From Enterobacteria phage ATK47, in the sequence record NC_055708.1: a stretch of DNA of 64,000 nucleotides; one strand, 5' to 3'. Shown here one piece after another: positions 2,183-53,507 of this stretch (its first letter is position 1; every line of letters starts with the position of its first letter). Position numbers and translations under genes: made by a program. The notes beneath the pieces are model-generated. The model did not search any database. It saw only the letters and a list, made by a program, of their open reading frames with translations, and was not told the origin of the DNA.

Positions 2183-4396
2183 ATGATTATTGAAACGGCT
2201 AAAGAAACGATTATTGGTTCAGGCGGTAAGAGCACAGCATTCACTATTCAAGGCAATAGCAAAGTTTATAAGATTTTGTCTAATGACCTTTATACAAACA
2301 AAGAATTGGCTTGTGTACGTGAATTAATCACAAACTGTATTGATGGACAAATTCTTAATGGTTGCACTGATAAGTTTATTGTTCAGGCTCCAGGTCGTTT
2401 AGACCCACGTTTTGTAGTTCGAGACTTTGGTCCTGGTATGAGTGATTTCACCATTAGAGGTAATGACGAAGAGCCGGGAATCTATAACTCATATTTTGCT
2501 TCAACTAAAACATCGAGTAACGATTTCATTGGTGGATTCGGACTCGGCTCTAAAGCTCCGCTAGCATATACCGATACATTTAACCTTACGTCTTATCACA
2601 ACGGTGAAGTTCGTGGTTACGTAATCTACCAAGATGACACAGGTCCACAAATTAAGCCGACCTTTGTAGATAAGATGGGTCCTGATGACCGTACGGGTGT
2701 AGAAGTAGTCGTACCGGTTAACCCGGAAGATTTTGAAAAGTTCGCATCCGAAATTGCATATGTTATGCGTCCTCTAGGTGATATTGCAGAAGTTCGTGGT
2801 GTTAAAGATATTAAATACTTCCCTGAATTTGACGATGTATATTTGGCCAAGGAAGCTCCATGGGGTGAACGCGGTAATATCATGGCTGTTTACGGTGGTA
2901 TTGTATATCCAATCGGAAGTGTTATTAAAGAACAAACATGGATGATGACTCGATGCACCACAGCTTATATTAAATTCCCTATGGGTGAACTAGACGTAGC
3001 TCCGTCTCGTGAAGCATTGTCATTTGATAAACGTACAGTAGCAAATATCCATAAACGCGTTGCAGAAATCGATGCTAAATTGTTCGCTGAAGATTCTAAG
3101 AAATGGATTGATTGTAAATACCCACGTCATGTGTTCCGTGAAATTGATTCTCTTGGTTATACCGCTCGTAAATACATGGAAAAGGCCGGGTCTAATATTG
3201 AATCACTGAAATACTCTAAAGAACAACTAACTTATTCTGAGTTGTACAAACGTTTTAAAATGGGGCCCGGATGGTGTAATCTTGGCGTTGTATACGATAT
3301 CGTTGAATCCCCTCGTCTTCGTCGTATTCGTGAAAGTGGTAGCTCATCGGCAACTATTTCAATTAACAGTCTGATTGGCATTAACATTAAAAACGTTGAA
3401 ATTGTTATTGACGACGTTAAGGGACGCGTTCCATTAATGCGAGCTCTTAATTCAATTGAAATGTCTAAAGACGAGGTTAAATTAACTGGTAAAGTTCCAC
3501 GCGGTTTTGGTAAAAGCGTACTATTCGTTGACCCTACAGACGAAGATGCAATGAAACTTCTGGAACGCCTTAAAGTTATCTTTGATGGCGACAACATTAA
3601 CATGTACAAGACTTCAGAGCTTTTACAAATCGTTAAGCCATGGATTGAAGTCAGGAAACGAACTAATGAGCCTCGTCCTAAATCGCCAAGTGCTCATCGA
3701 TTCTTTAAGAATGAAAACGATGTTTGGGTATCAGAAGACCTCTTTATTCCGGCAAGTGAAGCAGATGAAATCCAAGGTTATGCTATAGTTCGTAATCGTT
3801 CTAATGCTGAATGTCTTGACGCAGATAAAGGTTGGTTGAACTATGACTCCAATTTCTTGACCCGTATTGCTGATTTGTCAGGTATTAAAGAGTTCACTGT
3901 AGTTCGTCCACAGATTGCTAAGAAAGTTCGTAAACTTGGTGAAGTAGAATGCTTGTTCGAAAAATCTATTAACGACTATATTACGCTAATCGATAAAGTG
4001 GATTATGATGAGTATGTATCACCAAGTCGTAGAGCACAACCTTATTTGAATCATATTACTCGTAATGAAGAGCTTAACTTCCTTAGTAAGTATTTTAGCT
4101 CTAAAAACAAAGAAATCAGTAAAGATTTTGCAAAACTCTCAACAGTAAATAATCGTTGGGGATGGAATCGATTCTCAGGTGCTACTAACAGAGAACTGAA
4201 TAAAAAGTTAGAATTGTGTGCTAAAATTTTCGATAAGCTTAAAGATAATGCTTACGATAATGATGATAAAATGGTTATTGAATTCGAAACCAATTATCAT
4301 ATTGTGTCAGACTACATGGGACGACGTGGTACTCTTTCTAAAGAACAAGTCGCTCAAATCGTTAAATTCATGAAGGCCGTGGAAGCGGCCAAATAA
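2183..4396 (+). CDS. rIIA: rIIA protein (GHKL-type ATPase-like N-terminus)
   Basis: 737 aa; N-terminal ...NKELACVRELITNCIDG... and GGFGLGSK glycine motifs typical of GHKL ATPase fold; size and position (after gene 39, before rIIB) as in T4. Confidence 0.85.
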   Translation: MIIETAKETIIGSGGKSTAFTIQGNSKVYKILSNDLYTNKELACVRELITNCIDGQILNGCTDKFIVQAPGRLDPRFVVRDFGPGMSDFTIRGNDEEPGIYNSYFASTKTSSNDFIGGFGLGSKAPLAYTDTFNLTSYHNGEVRGYVIYQDDTGPQIKPTFVDKMGPDDRTGVEVVVPVNPEDFEKFASEIAYVMRPLGDIAEVRGVKDIKYFPEFDDVYLAKEAPWGERGNIMAVYGGIVYPIGSVIKEQTWMMTRCTTAYIKFPMGELDVAPSREALSFDKRTVANIHKRVAEIDAKLFAEDSKKWIDCKYPRHVFREIDSLGYTARKYMEKAGSNIESLKYSKEQLTYSELYKRFKMGPGWCNLGVVYDIVESPRLRRIRESGSSSATISINSLIGINIKNVEIVIDDVKGRVPLMRALNSIEMSKDEVKLTGKVPRGFGKSVLFVDPTDEDAMKLLERLKVIFDGDNINMYKTSELLQIVKPWIEVRKRTNEPRPKSPSAHRFFKNENDVWVSEDLFIPASEADEIQGYAIVRNRSNAECLDADKGWLNYDSNFLTRIADLSGIKEFTVVRPQIAKKVRKLGEVECLFEKSINDYITLIDKVDYDEYVSPSRRAQPYLNHITRNEELNFLSKYFSSKNKEISKDFAKLSTVNNRWGWNRFSGATNRELNKKLELCAKIFDKLKDNAYDNDDKMVIEFETNYHIVSDYMGRRGTLSKEQVAQIVKFMKAVEAAK

Positions 4397-5353: not shown

Positions 5354-5358
5354 TAATT

Positions 5359-5380
5359 GGGGACTTCGGTCCCCTTTTTT
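5359..5380 (+). terminator. Intrinsic terminator ggggacTTCGgtcccc + T6
   Basis: Perfect 6-bp stem, UUCG tetraloop, followed by tttttt. Confidence 0.7.
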
Positions 5381-5394
5381 CTTTAGGGGTAATT

Positions 5395-5682
5395 ATGATT
5401 CATCCATTTGACGTATCAGAATCCAAAATTGCTAATCTTCGTGGTCATCATAAGTGTAAATCAGTTTATTGTGCTAAATTGGTAAAACATCCTGGTGATG
5501 CACACTACGGCTGGTTAGAATGCGACGAAGTTGTTAATGAAATTCCACCTGTAGATGCTAACTATCTTGAAGAAGGAGACCGCATTTATTTTGGCGAACT
5601 ACACATCAGAGGTATCTATGGTAAAGACGAACTTGGGATTGTTGAGACTGAAGAGTCTTCCGACATTTATCCTGTCGAATGA
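5395..5682 (+). CDS. Hypothetical protein
   Basis: 95-aa ORF with RBS aggggt 7 nt upstream of ATG. Confidence 0.45.
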   Translation: MIHPFDVSESKIANLRGHHKCKSVYCAKLVKHPGDAHYGWLECDEVVNEIPPVDANYLEEGDRIYFGELHIRGIYGKDELGIVETEESSDIYPVE

Positions 5683-6507: not shown

Positions 6508-6699
6508 GCTCTAAAATGTGGATAGGAATATGGTTGCTTAGTATCCCAATGATTTGTATAATATTTTCAATTGTGTTGAGGTACTTATGAAAAATGCACT
6601 TCTTATTGTACTAAGAACAATTTGTGATACGGGTTTTTACATTGCATGTTCGTTCACTGGAACATGGTTGGCTTTAACATATTTTAATGTAATTTAATT

Positions 6700-6736
6700 G
6701 TTTACAACATAGTAGGATTATGGTATAGTAGTCCTA
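6700..6736 (+). promoter_or_regulatory. T4-type early promoter with near-palindrome around -10
   Basis: GTTTAC 6700-6705, TATAGT 6724-6729, flanking taggatta/tagtccta. Confidence 0.55.
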
Positions 6737-6757
6737 TCAAAACATGAGGAACACAAA

Positions 6758-6958
6758 ATGGCTAAGCTTTTTAAAGATGTTGAAATTGGTGAAAAATTTG
6801 TTCTGAATAATGGTCAGCAGCTTATTCGTGTAGCTTCTATCGCCGGACAAACTCATAACTGTATCGCCCCAACGTGTTGGACTCGATTCTTTATTGAGGA
6901 TGACACTGAATGTTTAACTGTTGAAGAGCTTTTTGAACGTTCTGATATAGCCGAATAA
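6758..6958 (+). CDS. Hypothetical protein
   Basis: 66-aa ORF preceded by catgaggaac RBS. Confidence 0.5.
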   Translation: MAKLFKDVEIGEKFVLNNGQQLIRVASIAGQTHNCIAPTCWTRFFIEDDTECLTVEELFERSDIAE

Positions 6959-9150: not shown

Positions 9151-9226
9151 GTGCCCTAGCCTTAGGATTTCTCGGTGCAATAGCTGTACTAGTGATTTGG
9201 CTGTATTGGTTGGACAAACATGATTA

Positions 9227-9247
9227 GGGAGCTTCGGCTCCCTTTTG
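9227..9247 (+). terminator. Intrinsic terminator gggagcTTCGgctccc + TTTTG
   Basis: Perfect stem with UUCG loop and T-run. Confidence 0.7.
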
Positions 9248-9269
9248 TGCATTTTTTTCTCACAAAACA

Positions 9270-9298
9270 GTTTACACGTGCTTCAAACGTGATATTAT
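9270..9298 (+). promoter_or_regulatory. T4-type early promoter
   Basis: GTTTAC 9270-9275, 17-nt spacer, TATTAT 9293-9298, followed by conserved atagacctatcaaaacaaa box. Confidence 0.55.
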
Positions 9299-9337
9299 AG
9301 ACCTATCAAAACAAAACAACCAAATTGGAGAAATAAA

Positions 9338-10629: not shown

Positions 10630-11087
10630 AATCATTTAAAGAACGTTTAGAGCTATTAGATTTGGCCTTGTCTCGTGAGACTCCTGAAAGTCTAGCAGAA
10701 AAATTCCAGTCCTACGGTTATAATTATTCTGCTGATGATATAATGAATGAAGTTCCTGAAATCTGTTGGCAAACATGCTATTGGAATAATGACCAAAAAG
10801 TTCAACGTGTTATAGTATGTGCAGCTAATAGGTTTAAATTGAAGAGCGGTGGAACTCTGGTTATTCCTGGAGTTCGTCATTACTCTAAAGATATGGCTGA
10901 AGTACTTGATATAGTTGGTCCTCAATTAGTCTCGCAACAAGTTTGTGGTGACGACCAAGGCTTTATTGACCAATACTCTAATTACTGGACACGTGAAGAA
11001 GCAATGATTATTGCAACGTATGCTGGACAGGTACGTATTGAACGTGGCGGAAGTGAGAAAGAACTTTATTCAGAGGACCTGTATTAA
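10626..11087 (+). CDS. Hypothetical protein
   Basis: 153-aa ORF, ATGA overlap with upstream gene (translational coupling). Confidence 0.5.
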
Positions 11088-11953: not shown

Positions 11954-12104
11954 TCTTCAGAACGTAGTAGAGGCCGAACGTGAGCGTGAGGCTTTAGTCT
12001 ATAATGAACTATTGGCCTCGTTCTTAGCCTTAAACTCGTACGAACAGGAAGACTACATTGATTACGTTAAAAGCGTAGAAAAAGCCGTTTACAATCAACA
12101 CTGA
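11942..12104 (+). CDS. Hypothetical small protein
   Basis: ATG 11942 overlapping stop of previous ORF; 53 aa. Confidence 0.35.
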
Positions 12105-12150
12105 TAATGGTACTATATCCATATCAACTAAGTGGAATGAATAAAACGTT

Positions 12151-23677: not shown

Positions 23678-23954
23678 GGTAAACATGGCTAAGAAAGAAG
23701 CAGTTGAATTTAATCAAGATGTGCATGGTGAAGAACTGGCTAAACTAGTCAAGGAAGCTTCCGATAACAAACTTAAAATTTCTGGTTATAATGAACTGAT
23801 TAAAGACATTCGTACTCGTGCTAAAGAAGAGCTTGGCGTCGATGGAAAAATGTTTAATCGTTTGTTAGCTCTTTATCATAAAGACGCTCGTGACCAATTT
23901 GAAGCTGAAAACGAAGAGGTAGTCGAGCTTTATGACACAGTTTTCACTAAGTGA
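23667..23954 (+). CDS. dsbA: dsDNA-binding protein DsbA (late transcription enhancer)
   Basis: 95 aa between rnh and 33 as in T4. Confidence 0.55.
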   Translation: MNSEVNMAKKEAVEFNQDVHGEELAKLVKEASDNKLKISGYNELIKDIRTRAKEELGVDGKMFNRLLALYHKDARDQFEAENEEVVELYDTVFTK

Positions 23955-38225: not shown

Positions 38226-39218
38226 ATGTTACCTGTCGTCGGAAAACTTATTTCTCCAAAAGAACTGGCTGAGATTATTCCTTTGTCGGAAGCTTACGCA
38301 TCACAAGTGGCTTCTCATCGCGAACAAGTTAATTCGATTATGAACGGTGAAGACCCACGCAAACTTATTGTTGTAGGTCCTTGTTCAATTCATGACCCTA
38401 TTGCTGCTGTTGAATACGGCAAACGTCTGGCTGAACTTCAAACTCGTCTTCCTAATGTTCTGTTAGTGATGCGCGTTTATTTTGAAAAGCCTCGAACTAC
38501 CGTAGGTTGGAAAGGTCTTGTAAATGATCCATATCTTGACGGAAGTTTTGATATGAACCACGGTCTTATAGTTGCACGAACATTGTGTCGTAAACTTCTA
38601 CGTATGGGACTTCCATTAGCAACTGAAGTATTAGACCCATTCACGATTAAGTATCTTTCTGGTATTTTCTCATGGGTTGCTATTGGCGCACGTACGACTG
38701 AAAGTCAGACACATCGTGAAATTGCTTCAGGTCTACCGATGTGCGTAGGCTTCAAGAACGCAACCAATGGTTCTATTAAAGTAGCTACAGACGCGATGTA
38801 TAGTGCCGCCTGGCCTCATCGGTATATGGGTATGGACGTCGATGGTACTGTAGGCATTGTTGAAGCTGAAGGTAATCAGAATACGCATATCGTATTGCGT
38901 GGCGGGACCAACGGCCCGAACTATCATTCTTCTGATATTCAAGAAGCTTCTAACAAAGCAAGGGCAGTAGGTCTGAATCATTATGTAATGGTTGACTGTA
39001 GCCATGCAAACGCTGATGGGCATTATAGCAATCAAATTGGTATTGGTAAAAAATTAGCAGCTAATGATTTGGTCAAAGGAATTATGATAGAATCGTTCCT
39101 ACATGAAGGAAATCAAAAAATTTCTGATAATATGTCCTATGGCGTTTCCGTTACCGATGCGTGCATCAGTTGGGAACAAACTAAAGAGCTGTTAACTTAT
39201 ATTAATAAGGTTCAATAA
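38226..39218 (+). CDS. 3-deoxy-D-arabino-heptulosonate-7-phosphate (DAHP) synthase, class I (AroG-like)
   Basis: 330 aa; LIVVGPCSIHDP, VMRVYFEKPRTTVGWKGLVNDP, GARTTESQTHREIASGL, GFKN, ILRGG, CSHAN, IESFLHEGNQ, VTDACISW align with recalled E. coli AroG including metal ligands (Cys, His, Glu, Asp) and PEP-binding residues. Confidence 0.85.
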   Translation: MLPVVGKLISPKELAEIIPLSEAYASQVASHREQVNSIMNGEDPRKLIVVGPCSIHDPIAAVEYGKRLAELQTRLPNVLLVMRVYFEKPRTTVGWKGLVNDPYLDGSFDMNHGLIVARTLCRKLLRMGLPLATEVLDPFTIKYLSGIFSWVAIGARTTESQTHREIASGLPMCVGFKNATNGSIKVATDAMYSAAWPHRYMGMDVDGTVGIVEAEGNQNTHIVLRGGTNGPNYHSSDIQEASNKARAVGLNHYVMVDCSHANADGHYSNQIGIGKKLAANDLVKGIMIESFLHEGNQKISDNMSYGVSVTDACISWEQTKELLTYINKVQ

Positions 39219-39799
39219 TGAAAGCTAGCACATACCTTCAGATTGCATATCTGATTTCTCAAGAATCAAAATGTTGTTCATGGAAAGTTGGTGCCGTCAT
39301 TGAAAAAGATGGACGCATTATCTCTACTGGATATAACGGTTCACCTGCAGGTGGCGTTAACTGTTGCGAACATGCATCTGAAAATGGTTGGTTGAAGAAT
39401 AAACCAATCCCAGTCATCGTTGCTGGACATAAAGAAGGCACTACAGCATTTGGACGGGTAGATAATTTTGTTTTAGCCAAAGAACATCGAGCTGCTCATA
39501 GTGCATGGTCTGCTAATAATGAAATCCATGCAGAATTGAATGCAATTTTGTTTGCCGCTCGTAAAGGTAATTCTATTGAAGGTGCTACGTTATATACGAC
39601 GCTTTCTCCATGTCCTGATTGTACTAAAGCTATTACGCAGTCAGGTATTAAAAAGGTTGTATATGCAGAATTATATGACCGATCTCCTGAAAACTGGGCA
39701 GACATTCTTAAACAAGCTGGTATTGAAGTAATTCAGTACTCTCGTAATAATCTTCGTTCTCTGAATTGGGAACAAATCCGAAACTTTTGTGGTGAATAA
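39218..39799 (+). CDS. cd: dCMP deaminase
   Basis: 193 aa; cytidine/deoxycytidylate deaminase zinc motifs HAELNA and SPCPDC. Confidence 0.85.
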   Translation: MKASTYLQIAYLISQESKCCSWKVGAVIEKDGRIISTGYNGSPAGGVNCCEHASENGWLKNKPIPVIVAGHKEGTTAFGRVDNFVLAKEHRAAHSAWSANNEIHAELNAILFAARKGNSIEGATLYTTLSPCPDCTKAITQSGIKKVVYAELYDRSPENWADILKQAGIEVIQYSRNNLRSLNWEQIRNFCGE

Positions 39800-40154: not shown

Positions 40155-40487
40155 ATGTCTGAAGTACAACTCCCAATTCGTGCTGTTGGTGAATATGTCA
40201 TTCTGGTTTCTGAACCCGCTCAAGCAGGTGATGAAGAAGTTACCGAATCAGGACTTGTGATTGGTAAACGTGTTCAAGGTGAAGTTCCTGAACTATGCGT
40301 AGTTCATTCTGTAGGTCCTGATGTTCCTGAAGGTTTTGTTGAAGTCGGTGATTTGACTCCACTACCAGTTGGACAAATTCGAAATGTTCCACATCCATTT
40401 GTGGCTTTGGGACTTAAACAACCTAAAGAAATTAAACAGAAATTCGTAACATGCCACTATAAAGCTATTCCGTGTCTTTATAAGTGA
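40155..40487 (+). CDS. 31: Head assembly co-chaperonin gp31 (GroES-like)
   Basis: 110 aa (T4 gp31 111 aa), position after cd. Confidence 0.7.
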
Positions 40488-40611
40488 TATAAATAACTAT
40501 ATGAAGAGAACACTCTTCTAAGCGGTAGCCTACAACTGAGAGACTTGTCGAAAGAAGGTGAAATTCAGACGAACGTGGCTACTAAATATTATCTCGAATT
40601 GAGAATTTAAA

Positions 40612-40860
40612 ATGATTAAACAATTACAACACGCTCTTGAACTGCAACGCAACGCATGGAATAACGGTCACGAAAACTACGGCGCTTCAATTGATGTTGA
40701 AGCCGAAGCACTGGAAATCCTGCGATATTTCAAACATCTGAATCCTGCTCAGGCTACTCTGGCTTCTGAACTGGAAGCTAAAGATGAATTGAAATATGCT
40801 AAGCCTCTGGCTTCTGCAGCACGCAAAGCAGTTCGTCATTTTGTTATTACCCTTAAATAA
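40612..40860 (+). CDS. Hypothetical protein (82 aa; size and position compatible with rIII, unverified)
   Basis: 82-aa ORF with RBS ttgagaa; T4 rIII is 82 aa and lies between 31 and 30. Confidence 0.4.
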   Translation: MIKQLQHALELQRNAWNNGHENYGASIDVEAEALEILRYFKHLNPAQATLASELEAKDELKYAKPLASAARKAVRHFVITLK

Positions 40861-41154
40861 GTTTTAGGTGATTCGCTACCTTAGTGCGGCTAGAAAATCG
40901 AGGAGCCGTCGAACTGTCTGATTAATGATTTGCGAATCATTATAGTTTTAAGACCCCGGCAGTTTTACGGTGTACCTCTTGAATGTATTTTATACTATCA
41001 CGCGTCAGAAAAAGGTTATCTGTCTAAGTCGTGGTTGGTATGATGACGGGTTTATGGTTATCCTGTCGTTAAATATCCAAAACCTATGTTCCCCTTGAGG
41101 GCTTGCGCAGGCAATGTCAATAAGTCCTGCATTTTCATTTAAAGAGAATTTATA

Positions 41155-41334
41155 ATGGCAAAACAAGCTAAAGCAAAGAAAGCAGTTGAAAAGAAAGTTG
41201 ATGGTACCTCTAAACGCGCTGGATACAAGCGTGGGTCGAACTCTCGTATTAATCAAACAGTTGAGAAGATCATGCGCAGAGCACGTGCAGTTCTTCGAGA
41301 TGATGCTTCTCGTTTTGGAAAGGTTGTTGCATAA
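41155..41334 (+). CDS. Small highly basic protein (59 aa)
   Basis: ATG 41155 after aaagagaa; Lys/Arg-rich translation MAKQAKAKKAVEKKVDGTSKRAGYKRGS...; followed directly by a UUCG terminator; below ORF-track cutoff. Confidence 0.4.
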   Translation: MAKQAKAKKAVEKKVDGTSKRAGYKRGSNSRINQTVEKIMRRARAVLRDDASRFGKVVA

Positions 41335-41339
41335 TTTTA

Positions 41340-41361
41340 GGGAGACTTCGGTCTCCCTTTT
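41340..41361 (+). terminator. Intrinsic terminator gggagacTTCGgtctccc + TTTTG
   Basis: Perfect 7-bp stem, UUCG loop, T-run. Confidence 0.7.
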
Positions 41362-41393
41362 GTGCGTTTAGGGCAGAAAAAGTTTAAAAAGAT

Positions 41394-41422
41394 GTTTACT
41401 CTCCTGTAGGATGTGTTACTAT
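41394..41422 (+). promoter_or_regulatory. T4-type early promoter
   Basis: GTTTAC 41394-41399, 17-nt spacer, TACTAT 41417-41422. Confidence 0.5.
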
Positions 41423-41464
41423 AGACTTGTACCATCTAATCAATAAAACAACCTGGAGAACAAA

Positions 41465-41833
41465 ATGAAAATCAATCTGAACTCATACATCAAATGTAAA
41501 GACCATGACGGTTATAAAGCTATCGAAATTAAAGAATTCCAGTGGATGTTATACAAAGAGCAATTTGAGTTCGTAGGTTGTATGACCCCTGAAGGTCCTT
41601 CTGATGATTTCTCTTGGAAAATTGTGTTAGCAAACTTTTTCACAGGTGACACATACGAATTAAAAACTATTATTACCGGTAAAATTCGTTCAGAAACATA
41701 TGTTGACGAAGAAACTGGTTACTCTGAAGATGTTACATGGTATCAAAATGGACGCATTACAGCAGATAACCTGATCGAAAAAATGAAAGCCAAAGGTGTT
41801 TTAAATTTAGACAATTGGATTAAAGTTGCATAA
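41465..41833 (+). CDS. Hypothetical protein
   Basis: 122-aa ORF with ggag RBS downstream of early promoter. Confidence 0.5.
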   Translation: MKINLNSYIKCKDHDGYKAIEIKEFQWMLYKEQFEFVGCMTPEGPSDDFSWKIVLANFFTGDTYELKTIITGKIRSETYVDEETGYSEDVTWYQNGRITADNLIEKMKAKGVLNLDNWIKVA

Positions 41834-41837
41834 AACA

Positions 41838-41877
41838 GTTTACTTTGGTACAGGTTATGTTATTATAGACCTGTACC
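41838..41877 (+). promoter_or_regulatory. T4-type early promoter with 8-bp inverted repeat ggtacagg/cctgtacc bracketing TATTAT
   Basis: GTTTAC 41838-41843, TATTAT 41861-41866. Confidence 0.55.
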
Positions 41878-52977: not shown

Positions 52978-53507
52978 TCAAGCAATCCAATAATTTCTGC
53001 TATACCCTTAATAGGGCCATTAGGGCCTGGAATAGCAATAGTTGTCGAAAGGTCTTCTGCCCATTTGATTACAAAAGCAGGCATCTCAAGGAAAGAAATT
53101 TCTTTCTCTTCGTCATTAACTTTTATTAAGCAATTTGATAGCATTTCACTGATTGTAGCGAATTGTTCAAATTTGCCTGGGGGTCTAAAATAAAAAGTAT
53201 TACCTTGAAATTGGAATTCTGTTCGTTGGCATACATAGACGTCATCTAGTTTATAAGTGAATCCATCTTTTTCAACTTCAGACTTAAGTTTGTTATTAAA
53301 TTCCAATATGTGTAGACATGCAAAATCAAAATCTGCGGGACTCATATTTTTACAAATAGAATCAGCTAAGATTTTCATGTTTTCGTCAGGGCCTTTAACG
53401 TCCTTTAAAAGATTATAATGTTTGAGCCCTAATTTGGGAATCATTACCTTTTTATTAGACTGTGGTAGAATTATTTTCTTTAGAGGTAGAATCAGATTTA
53501 AGTTCAT
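52974..53507 (-). CDS. 28: Baseplate hub distal subunit gp28
   Basis: 177 aa (T4 gp28 177 aa), synteny. Confidence 0.65.

Follow-up and report, generated by a model that had tools for sequence, protein, structure and literature searches.

The DNA analysed here, a 64,000-nt stretch of Enterobacteria phage ATK47 (NC_055708.1; hereafter the window), comes from a T-even, RB69-like phage of the genus Mosigvirus, and this report concerns the gap that separates rIII from gene 30.9. The gene order on the + strand is cd (39218–39799), 31.1, gene 31 (40155–40487), rIII (40612–40860), the gap, a 59-aa open reading frame (ORF), 30.8 and 30.7; positions 40488–41464 are 100% identical to phage ATK48. The layout in T4 is equal, with an unannotated gap of 244 nt (AF158101, 130541–130784). 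From the comparison of relatives, it is clear that the gap (40861–41154) is a structured RNA on the sense strand that is under strong constraint and codes for no conserved protein. Five modules tile its 294 nt, each with compensatory changes, and the core of this island is an H-type pseudoknot, module A, which also occurs inside or near tRNA clusters of phages outside the T-even group. The features of the locus are listed below.

40525–40582, + strand: module G, a three-tier hairpin GUAGCC...UGUCGAAAGAAG...GGCUAC in the gene 31–rIII gap (covariation)
40612–40860, + strand: rIII, lysis-inhibition accessory protein, 82 aa (phrog_1457, E 2.6e-43); upstream edge of the island, stop codon at 40858–40860
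40866–40899, + strand: module F, a small hairpin CGC-U-AC / CUUA / GU-GCG (covariation)
40895–40986, + strand: module E, a long irregular stem-loop (98.9% identical to T4; covariation)
40996–41036, + strand: module D, a cassette in the variable middle (stem covariation)
41037–41093, + strand: module A, an H-type pseudoknot of about 57 nt (covariation in both helices; present in every rIII–30.9 gap examined)
41088–41130, + strand: modules B and Bx (stem covariation, constant loop)
41131–41154, + strand: U-rich spacer and ribosome-binding region of 30.9, with GAGA at 41144–41147 (read from the sequence)
41155–41334, + strand: gene 30.9 homologue, 59 aa, pI 11.35, ATG start (phrog_1427, E 2.4e-31)
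41340–41369, + strand: terminator-like hairpin GGGAGAC-UUCG-GUCUCCC followed by UUUUGUGCGUUU; stem-loop and UUUU at 41340–41361 (ARNold annotation in ATK48 and G53)

A non-coding gap under strong constraint

The gap is the longest real ORF-free stretch of the window, where a crude ORF tiling gives a median inter-ORF gap of 56 nt, and a preliminary description of this DNA, which had remarked on a long stretch without ORFs in a tightly packed genome, is borne out on this point. The sole longer stretch, 52978–53454, was rejected as an artefact, being covered by a 177-aa minus-strand ORF. The same crude tiling leaves five further stretches of 187–254 nt without an ATG-initiated ORF of at least 45 aa (5354–5554, 6508–6757, 9151–9337, 11954–12150 and 23678–23931).

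A protein-coding gap was considered and rejected, since among near-identical relatives all frames are broken by 1-nt indels, by a 44-nt deletion (T4) or by a 150-nt insertion (G3F10). The coding status of the homologous gaps, which the preliminary description had named as a point that could overturn its reading, is thereby settled as non-coding. Some phage records annotate ORFs of 37–62 aa within the gap; those found there, of 37, 42 and 83 aa in the window and of 62 aa in R5505, belong to no Pfam or PHROG family, and their frames are not kept among relatives. Of 50,697 phage records, 772 contain a match to the stretch; almost all belong to phages that infect enterobacteria, and none of the 772 carries an RNA annotation at the gap.

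When the T4 interval was compared, as had been proposed, two blocks were found to be nearly unchanged, 40895–40986 with 98.9% and 41040–41154 with 99.1% identity. The corresponding values for the neighbouring genes are 87.1% for rIII (71% at third codon positions), 92% for 30.9, 86% for 30.7 and 53% for 30.8. The folding stability of the whole gap is no different from that of shuffled sequences on either strand (z −0.18 and −1.16), meaning that single-sequence folding alone would miss the element.

Module A is an H-type pseudoknot

In module A, helix S1 pairs AUGACGGG (41043–41050) with CCUGUCGU (41062–41069). The 11-nt loop closed by this helix, UUUAUGGUUAU (41051–41061), supplies UAUGGUU (41053–41059) to helix S2, whose other strand is AACCUA (41081–41086), and between the helices runs the conserved, A-rich linker L3, UAAAUAUCCAA (41070–41080), to which the motif CGUUAAAUAUCC is assigned. 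The unpaired parts GUU, AU and CGUUAAAUAUCCAAAAC are kept from coliphages to marine contigs. The T4 copy of module A lies at AF158101 130604–130661, on the minus strand.

The pairing scheme was checked against 30 distinct sequences, in which 80.3% of cells pair, compared with 30–47% when the 3′ partners are slid by 1–3 columns. The covariation score is 0.337 against 0.138 ± 0.016 after shuffling, a value reached by none of 500 shuffles; these statistics, as those of the other modules, rest on related sequences and so overstate independence, and some module alignments are small. Changes on both sides occur in four pairs of each helix, and S2 appears as UGUGAG/CUCACA, GAAAG/CUUUC, GUUGG/CCAAC, CAAGG/UCUUG and CUAUG/CAUAG in relatives. 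Since the length of the tail varies, we have also compared the loop of each sequence with the tail that belongs to it and with tails taken from other sequences: the longest loop–tail helix has a median of 7 bp in the former case and of 4 bp in the latter, and at least 7 bp are reached by 10 of the 18 own combinations and by 17 of the 298 foreign ones. G·U cells outnumber A·C cells by 41 to 10, indicating that the folded strand is the gene strand. A covariance model of module A (R1) found a single copy in the 64-kb window, at 71 bits with the next best match at 12 bits, and neither BLAST nor the covariance model detected extra copies of the modules there.

Module A in and near tRNA arrays outside the T-even phages

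By pattern scans requiring exact matches, followed by the covariance model, module A was located in at least five further, non-T-even contexts, inside or near tRNA clusters; its true distribution is probably wider than what was found. In contig L071 it exactly fills the space between tRNA-Asp (6855–6929) and tRNA-Pro (6720–6796), on the same strand, within an array of 12 tRNAs; this contig resembles isolated phages only at the level of tRNAs and HNH sequences. Elsewhere in the contig lie a group I intron (3462–3704), which at 59 bits exceeds the gathering score, and a weak match of Y RNA type (10670–10747), which at 33 bits stays below the gathering score. In L091 and L102 module A begins at the last bases of tRNA-Met, and in L084 it follows tRNA-Ile by 220 nt.

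In a metagenomic group (L107, L117, L122, L123 and L130), module A comes after about 200 nt of conserved sequence and precedes a tRNA-like fold of 88 nt; beyond that fold, L130 and L123 have tRNA matches. In the tRNA-like fold itself (L130 1703–1790, L107 120–207, and also in L123), the acceptor-type stem has 7–8 bp and ends GGGGUGCCA, the T-loop reads UUCGAUU, and the anticodon-like loop, of 7 nt, reads CUUAUAA, CUUCUAA or AUUCUAA; neither ARAGORN nor Rfam calls the fold. The isolated Vibrio phage 424E50-1 carries a module A-like pseudoknot (32 bits, a partial match) in a 1.1-kb stretch after three tRNAs (L144 2027–3174; OX241437.1, about 130170–131317). Only five short hypothetical ORFs (29–110 aa), all on the opposite strand, are found in that stretch, which may hold further non-coding RNAs.

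A search of 185,579 bacterial and archaeal genomes gave 11 pattern matches, approximately the chance level, and no complete module A. The best bacterial match, in Lentilactobacillus, is without the tail and the second helix and has no tRNA nearby.

Modular architecture of the island

The rIII–30.9 intervals were collected from 60-odd loci, comprising GenBank phages, IMG/VR contigs retrieved via gp30.9 and RIII, and metagenomes. In every enterobacterial T-even phage examined, the interval is 120–416 nt long, non-coding and built of a limited set of modules. We have distinguished 27 architectures, with module A in all of them, module B in nearly all and the order permuted: F-E-D-A-B-Bx in the window, F-E-A-B-Bx in T4, F-E-C-A-B-Bx in G3F10, B-A-F-I-sd in Karamvirus KMB19 and H-A-F-C-B-G-sd in Klebsiella-phage types. 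The modules are single-copy in each genome and restricted to one syntenic slot. Across relatives, about 35 to 260 nt separate module A from the start codon of 30.9, and the hairpins B and Bx, or G, I and T in relatives, lie there.

Module F comprises five pairs (40874-40888, 40875-40887, 40876-40886, 40878-40885 and 40879-40884), three of them compensatory and none broken among 11 distinct sequences, and its position is shuffled in relatives. In module E, GAGG (40900–40903) pairs with CCUC (40975–40978), and the 3′ side holds a conserved internal loop of 20 nt; five of its 25 predicted pairs are compensatory, one of them passing through G-C, G·U and A-U. The tip of module E is the perfect 8-bp hairpin uaaugauu (40923–40930), ugcg (40931–40934) and aaucauua (40935–40942), of a kind expected by chance about 0.005 times in 294 nt for an exact 8-bp stem with a 4-nt loop (hand arithmetic). 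This is the hairpin at 40923–40942 that the preliminary description had pointed out; it is real and conserved, with the compensatory form UAUCGAUU-UACG-AAUCGGUA in the relative L035, but it is the peripheral tip of a larger module, and the core pseudoknot lies 100 nt downstream. In L049 the tip hairpin is missing yet the outer stems are kept, so the tip is dispensable.

Module D is a hairpin with CAGA (41006–41009) and UCUG (41019–41022) around the loop AAAAGGUUA, and its stem changes to CAGC/GCUG in relatives. It is missing in T4, it is also found at positions other than this one (in L039 it is nested in module I), and elsewhere the 140-nt module C takes its place, so that D and C are alternative cassettes at one junction. 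Module B has the form CCC-UUGA-GGG followed by CUUG (41092–41105), with the stem ACCC..GGGC or AGCC..GGCC, and the Bx hairpin joins GCAGG (41107–41111) to CCUGC (41126–41130) over the 14-nt loop CAAUGUCAAUAAGU; its stem reads GAACUGG/CCAGUUC in relatives with the loop constant.

Module G has the outer stem GUAGCC/GGCUAC in the window, GUAGUC/GACUAC in T4 and GGGAGC/GCUCCC in the Karamvirus type, and the inner stem CUGA/UCAG or CCGA/UCGG. In the window and T4 it occupies the gene 31–rIII gap, and in many other phages it stands just upstream of 30.9; the island thus spans both sides of rIII.

Module C, of about 140 nt, is self-closing. Of its 44 nested pairs 22 are compensatory, and it contains a GNRA-type loop together with a loop–loop contact, CGAUGG/CCAUCG, that covaries as judged by eye. 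A single copy per genome is present in 403 phage records, in most cases with 90–99% identity, from T4-like phages of Klebsiella, Enterobacter, Edwardsiella, Serratia and Erwinia. Among the rIII–30.9 gaps collected it is found in L004 (925–1070), L026, L030, L036–L038, L040, L042–L048, L050–L054 and L056. In size and complexity it resembles a riboswitch or a ribozyme, and Rfam contains no match to it. Its covariance model (R2) has no match in the window or in the environmental contigs, and modules C and A are therefore not an obligate unit.

Distant T4-like phages without 30.9 downstream of rIII are also without the modules, and in L057 and L019 a 30.9-like gene follows a spacer of 9–13 nt without any island. 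In L044 (1549–1800), modules B-A-F-I and the hairpin at the Shine–Dalgarno (SD) sequence are kept, and the 30.9 frame enters unrelated sequence after 13 codons; here the leader has outlived the core of 30.9.

Known RNA families and earlier accounts

The covariance comparison that the preliminary description had suggested was made with Rfam 15 and matched no family. At the gathering threshold the whole window gave no matches, and with E up to 10 the region 40400–41500 gave only chance-level matches of snoRNA or terminator type; in the related loci, Rfam 15 reported only tRNAs, one group I intron and matches to other families below the gathering score. No tRNA or tmRNA was detected by ARAGORN or the Rfam tRNA clan in the window, nor in ten T-even loci including that of T4.

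The T4 stable RNAs C and D (species 1 and 2) are small, co-transcribed and embedded in a tRNA array, as module A is in other phages. In the T-evens, in contrast, module A stands between protein genes, 60 kb from the tRNA cluster, and rnaC and rnaD bear no likeness to the island (BLAST E ≥0.13; no match of model R1 in T4 69500–74500). The PeSL elements, reportedly described by Arbiol et al. in 2010, are said to combine an early promoter with a stem-loop and to act as mobile regulatory cassettes of T4-type phages. The island modules are likewise short, non-coding and shuffled between related T4-type genomes, but they are without a promoter, single-copy, confined to one syntenic slot, and folded into pseudoknots and multi-helix structures; the combination of an early promoter (GTTTAC-17-TAnnAT) with a stem-loop was not found in the gap.

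Within the limited reach of our search, the literature gave no account of the rIII–30.9 interval, of matching T4 small RNAs or of pseudoknots in tRNA arrays. A 2010 review of post-transcriptional control in T4 lists no pseudoknot other than that of gene 32 and leaves the interval unmentioned (PMC3014915), and a 2022 T4 transcriptome paper does not discuss it. A catalogue of 10,006 viral RNA motifs (PMC10690425) names nothing here in its text, while its supplement, which lay outside the search, might hold the modules unnamed. As far as the search reached, the island is undescribed, and module A is without a counterpart in Rfam or the literature.

Gene 30.9 and its surroundings

The 59-aa ORF, already noted as rich in lysine and arginine, indeed contains 10 Lys and 8 Arg, and it belongs to the gp30.9 family: the phrog_1427 profile covers residues 1–57 of the product, which is 95% identical to T4 gp30.9. 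Among 35 distinct genes, residues are kept and synonymous sites vary, as is expected of a genuine conserved gene, with the C-terminal half diverging among relatives. No Pfam, NCBIfam or PDB relative of gp30.9 was found, by searches that included neither a large database nor structure prediction. The SD sequence lies within or beside a small hairpin in all lineages, and the U-rich spacer of the window is exchanged in other lineages for a CUCC...GGAAGA hairpin that contains the 30.9 SD.

Codons 20–36 of 30.9 (41212–41262, segment SKRAGYKRGSNSRIN) show almost no synonymous variation in the same 35 genes, with codons 42–51 varying freely, which may reflect preferred codons or an overlapping RNA constraint.

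Beyond the stop codon, the 7-bp GC-rich stem with its UUCG loop stands where a terminator had been proposed, and it is annotated as such in ATK48; our local scan, which required at least five U residues, did not call it. T4-type early promoters precede 30.8 (41375–41430, GTTTAC-17-TACTAT) and 30.7 (41836–41870, GTTTAC-17-TATTAT), the first just after the terminator-like hairpin of 30.9 in a layout that resembles a PeSL cassette. Further upstream, beside cd, a full-length DAHP synthase of 330 aa (AroG-type, an enzyme of the aromatic amino-acid pathway) is encoded at 38226–39218 and annotated likewise in ATK48; phage G53 has only a misc_feature at this position.

Interpretation

With moderate confidence, and judging from sequence comparisons, we read the island as a cluster of putatively autonomous structured RNA domains that would be co-transcribed with rIII and 30.9. 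Since no promoter or terminator was found between rIII and the island, the latter would be read through from the promoters of rIII and gene 31, and the transcript would end at the putative 30.9 terminator. On the transcription of rIII, a 2022 paper on RIII states no more than that early, middle and late promoters all contribute to it (PMC9409239). The modules would fold independently. Module A would be an autonomous RNA domain, recognised by a conserved factor of host or phage. It may act as part of the mRNA, or endonucleolytic cleavage may set it free to act as a small stable RNA, just as tRNA processing would free it in tRNA arrays. It would not be an operator dedicated to 30.9, although Bx and the U-rich spacer, which adjoin the start codon, may have a secondary effect on the translation of 30.9 or on mRNA stability.

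Two observations lead us in this direction. A tRNA array offers neither an ORF that could be regulated nor an mRNA in need of stabilising, and module A would accordingly be either a released product or a domain recognised wherever it is transcribed. In addition, the near-invariance of loop and linker from coliphages to marine contigs suggests specific recognition by something conserved rather than a passive barrier. The recognising partner would most plausibly be host machinery; to connect it with tRNA processing, translation or tRNA-targeting defence is speculative. Four points weigh on the other side. The independent non-T-even contexts are few (at least five), with only two in which module A abuts a tRNA directly; the 99% identity to T4 might partly reflect recent recombination between T-even genera and not selection alone; the island stands directly upstream of 30.9 in every T-even phage examined, which would also fit a leader role; and S2 in the window's own lineage is the weakest version of this helix (4 bp, a bulge and 2 bp).

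The position directly upstream of 30.9 is the starting point for the alternative that survives best, namely that the island is a dedicated cis-acting leader of 30.9, a translational operator bound, for example, by gp30.9 itself and setting both gp30.9 synthesis and mRNA half-life, in the manner of the T4 gene 32 pseudoknot or of ribosomal-protein operators. The basic character and small size of gp30.9, the SD hairpin of every lineage and the joint absence of 30.9 and island downstream of rIII in distant phages would all fit an operator, and T4 itself provides the precedent: the gene 32 operator of T4, T2 and RB69 is also an H-type pseudoknot in a T-even mRNA (PMC3014915), one that precedes the gene of a nucleic-acid-type protein and has A/U-rich sequence after it. 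Module A differs from it in locus and sequence, in its occurrence away from ORFs in tRNA arrays, and in what precedes the start codon, where conserved structured hairpins intervene in place of the unstructured UUAAA tract, so that the gene 32-type layout of an unstructured A+U-rich tract reaching to the ribosome-binding site is not seen here. A dedicated operator is also difficult to reconcile with a distance to the start codon that ranges from about 35 to 260 nt in permuted module orders, with L044, which keeps the modules without the 30.9 core, and with L057 and L019, whose 30.9-like genes do with spacers of 9–13 nt. Moreover, 99% identity across genera is hard to square with a co-evolving protein whose C-terminal half diverges. 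We consider a dedicated 30.9 operator unlikely and prefer the reading as an autonomous RNA domain or a small stable RNA. Of the preliminary proposal of a small RNA or structured leader, the structured RNA stands, and the ORF-less copies in tRNA arrays weaken the case for a leader that serves the 59-aa ORF alone.

The island could also be passive punctuation, that is, a set of nuclease-resistant folds or of sites for RNase E, G, III or P that segments the 31–rIII–30.9 transcript without a specific partner, protecting the 3′ end of rIII mRNA or the 5′ end of 30.9 mRNA, or shielding the untranslated stretch from Rho. Its intercistronic position, the compact folds that tile it with no internal promoter or terminator, and the presence of module A at places in tRNA arrays where processing must happen are as one would expect of such a role, and module E presumably resembles the irregular hairpins of phage RNase III sites. 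Barriers, however, need stable helices and not near-invariant GUU, AU and CGUUAAAUAUCCAAAAC, and the stability of the gap is ordinary (z −0.18 against shuffles). This makes a purely passive role quite improbable.

A small-RNA gene with its own promoter, or a riboswitch of the preQ1-I type controlling 30.9, is very unlikely. The promoter proposed in the preliminary description, GTTTTAC...TATACT, is not supported: TTTTAC and TATACT are 22 nt apart, a wrong spacing, and the alternative at 16–17 nt, the match TTTACG-16-TATTTT, is below the scan threshold. The consensus scan called no promoter in 40861–41154, the best match agreeing at 8 of 12 positions as counted by eye. Some relatives do offer a better −10 sequence (TACTAT) at 18 nt, but the candidate −35 lies inside the module E stem, and T4 deletes the −10 part yet keeps both conserved blocks. 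As for a riboswitch, module A shares what we take to be the layout of the preQ1-I aptamer, a hairpin with its loop paired to sequence beyond an A-rich 3′ tail. It differs in its longer and differently conserved linker; no Rfam riboswitch, the preQ1 family included, was listed even at E up to 10, and the downstream gene is 30.9 or tRNAs and not a gene of queuosine synthesis or transport, with no gene to regulate at all for the copies in tRNA arrays.

A DNA-level element (an origin, a recombination site or a homing hotspot), or a decaying gene conserved by recent horizontal transfer, is hardly credible: ATK48 carries an 'ori type 2 repeat' annotation at 41135–41144, short ORFs of 37–62 aa are annotated here in some records and T-even genomes are mosaic, with neighbouring 30.8 only 53% identical to T4, but the compensatory changes keep RNA-type pairs, many of them G·U (A·C on the opposite strand), the covariation of the pseudoknot is unexplained by a DNA function, the annotated ORFs are neither frame-conserved nor members of a family, and the structure is kept in distant phages at low sequence identity.

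Beyond the autonomous-domain reading we put forward, tentatively and with some doubt, a wider proposal. Module A may represent a new, phage-specific class of small pseudoknot RNAs, carried in tRNA arrays or mRNA spacers, released by processing and acting in trans on conserved host machinery (tRNA processing, translation or RNA-targeting defence), and the rIII–30.9 gap may be a multi-gene non-coding RNA locus comprising A, C, E, G and others.

Although T4 serves as the reference phage, its rIII–30.9 interval is unannotated in its GenBank record, in Rfam 15 and in the reviews searched. With its shuffled, self-closing modules, the island is also a clear example from nature of RNA domains that evolve in the manner of cassettes. 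A highly conserved contact partner of this RNA is indicated by the 99% identity between genera, together with the pseudoknot in tRNA arrays both of marine and of uncultivated phages. If that partner is translation, the tRNA-processing machinery or a defence system, an RNA-based layer would be added to the takeover of the host, and there would be a handle on the long-unexplained small stable RNAs of phage tRNA clusters. Should the trans-acting class prove true, a non-coding RNA locus would have been overlooked in the most studied phage.

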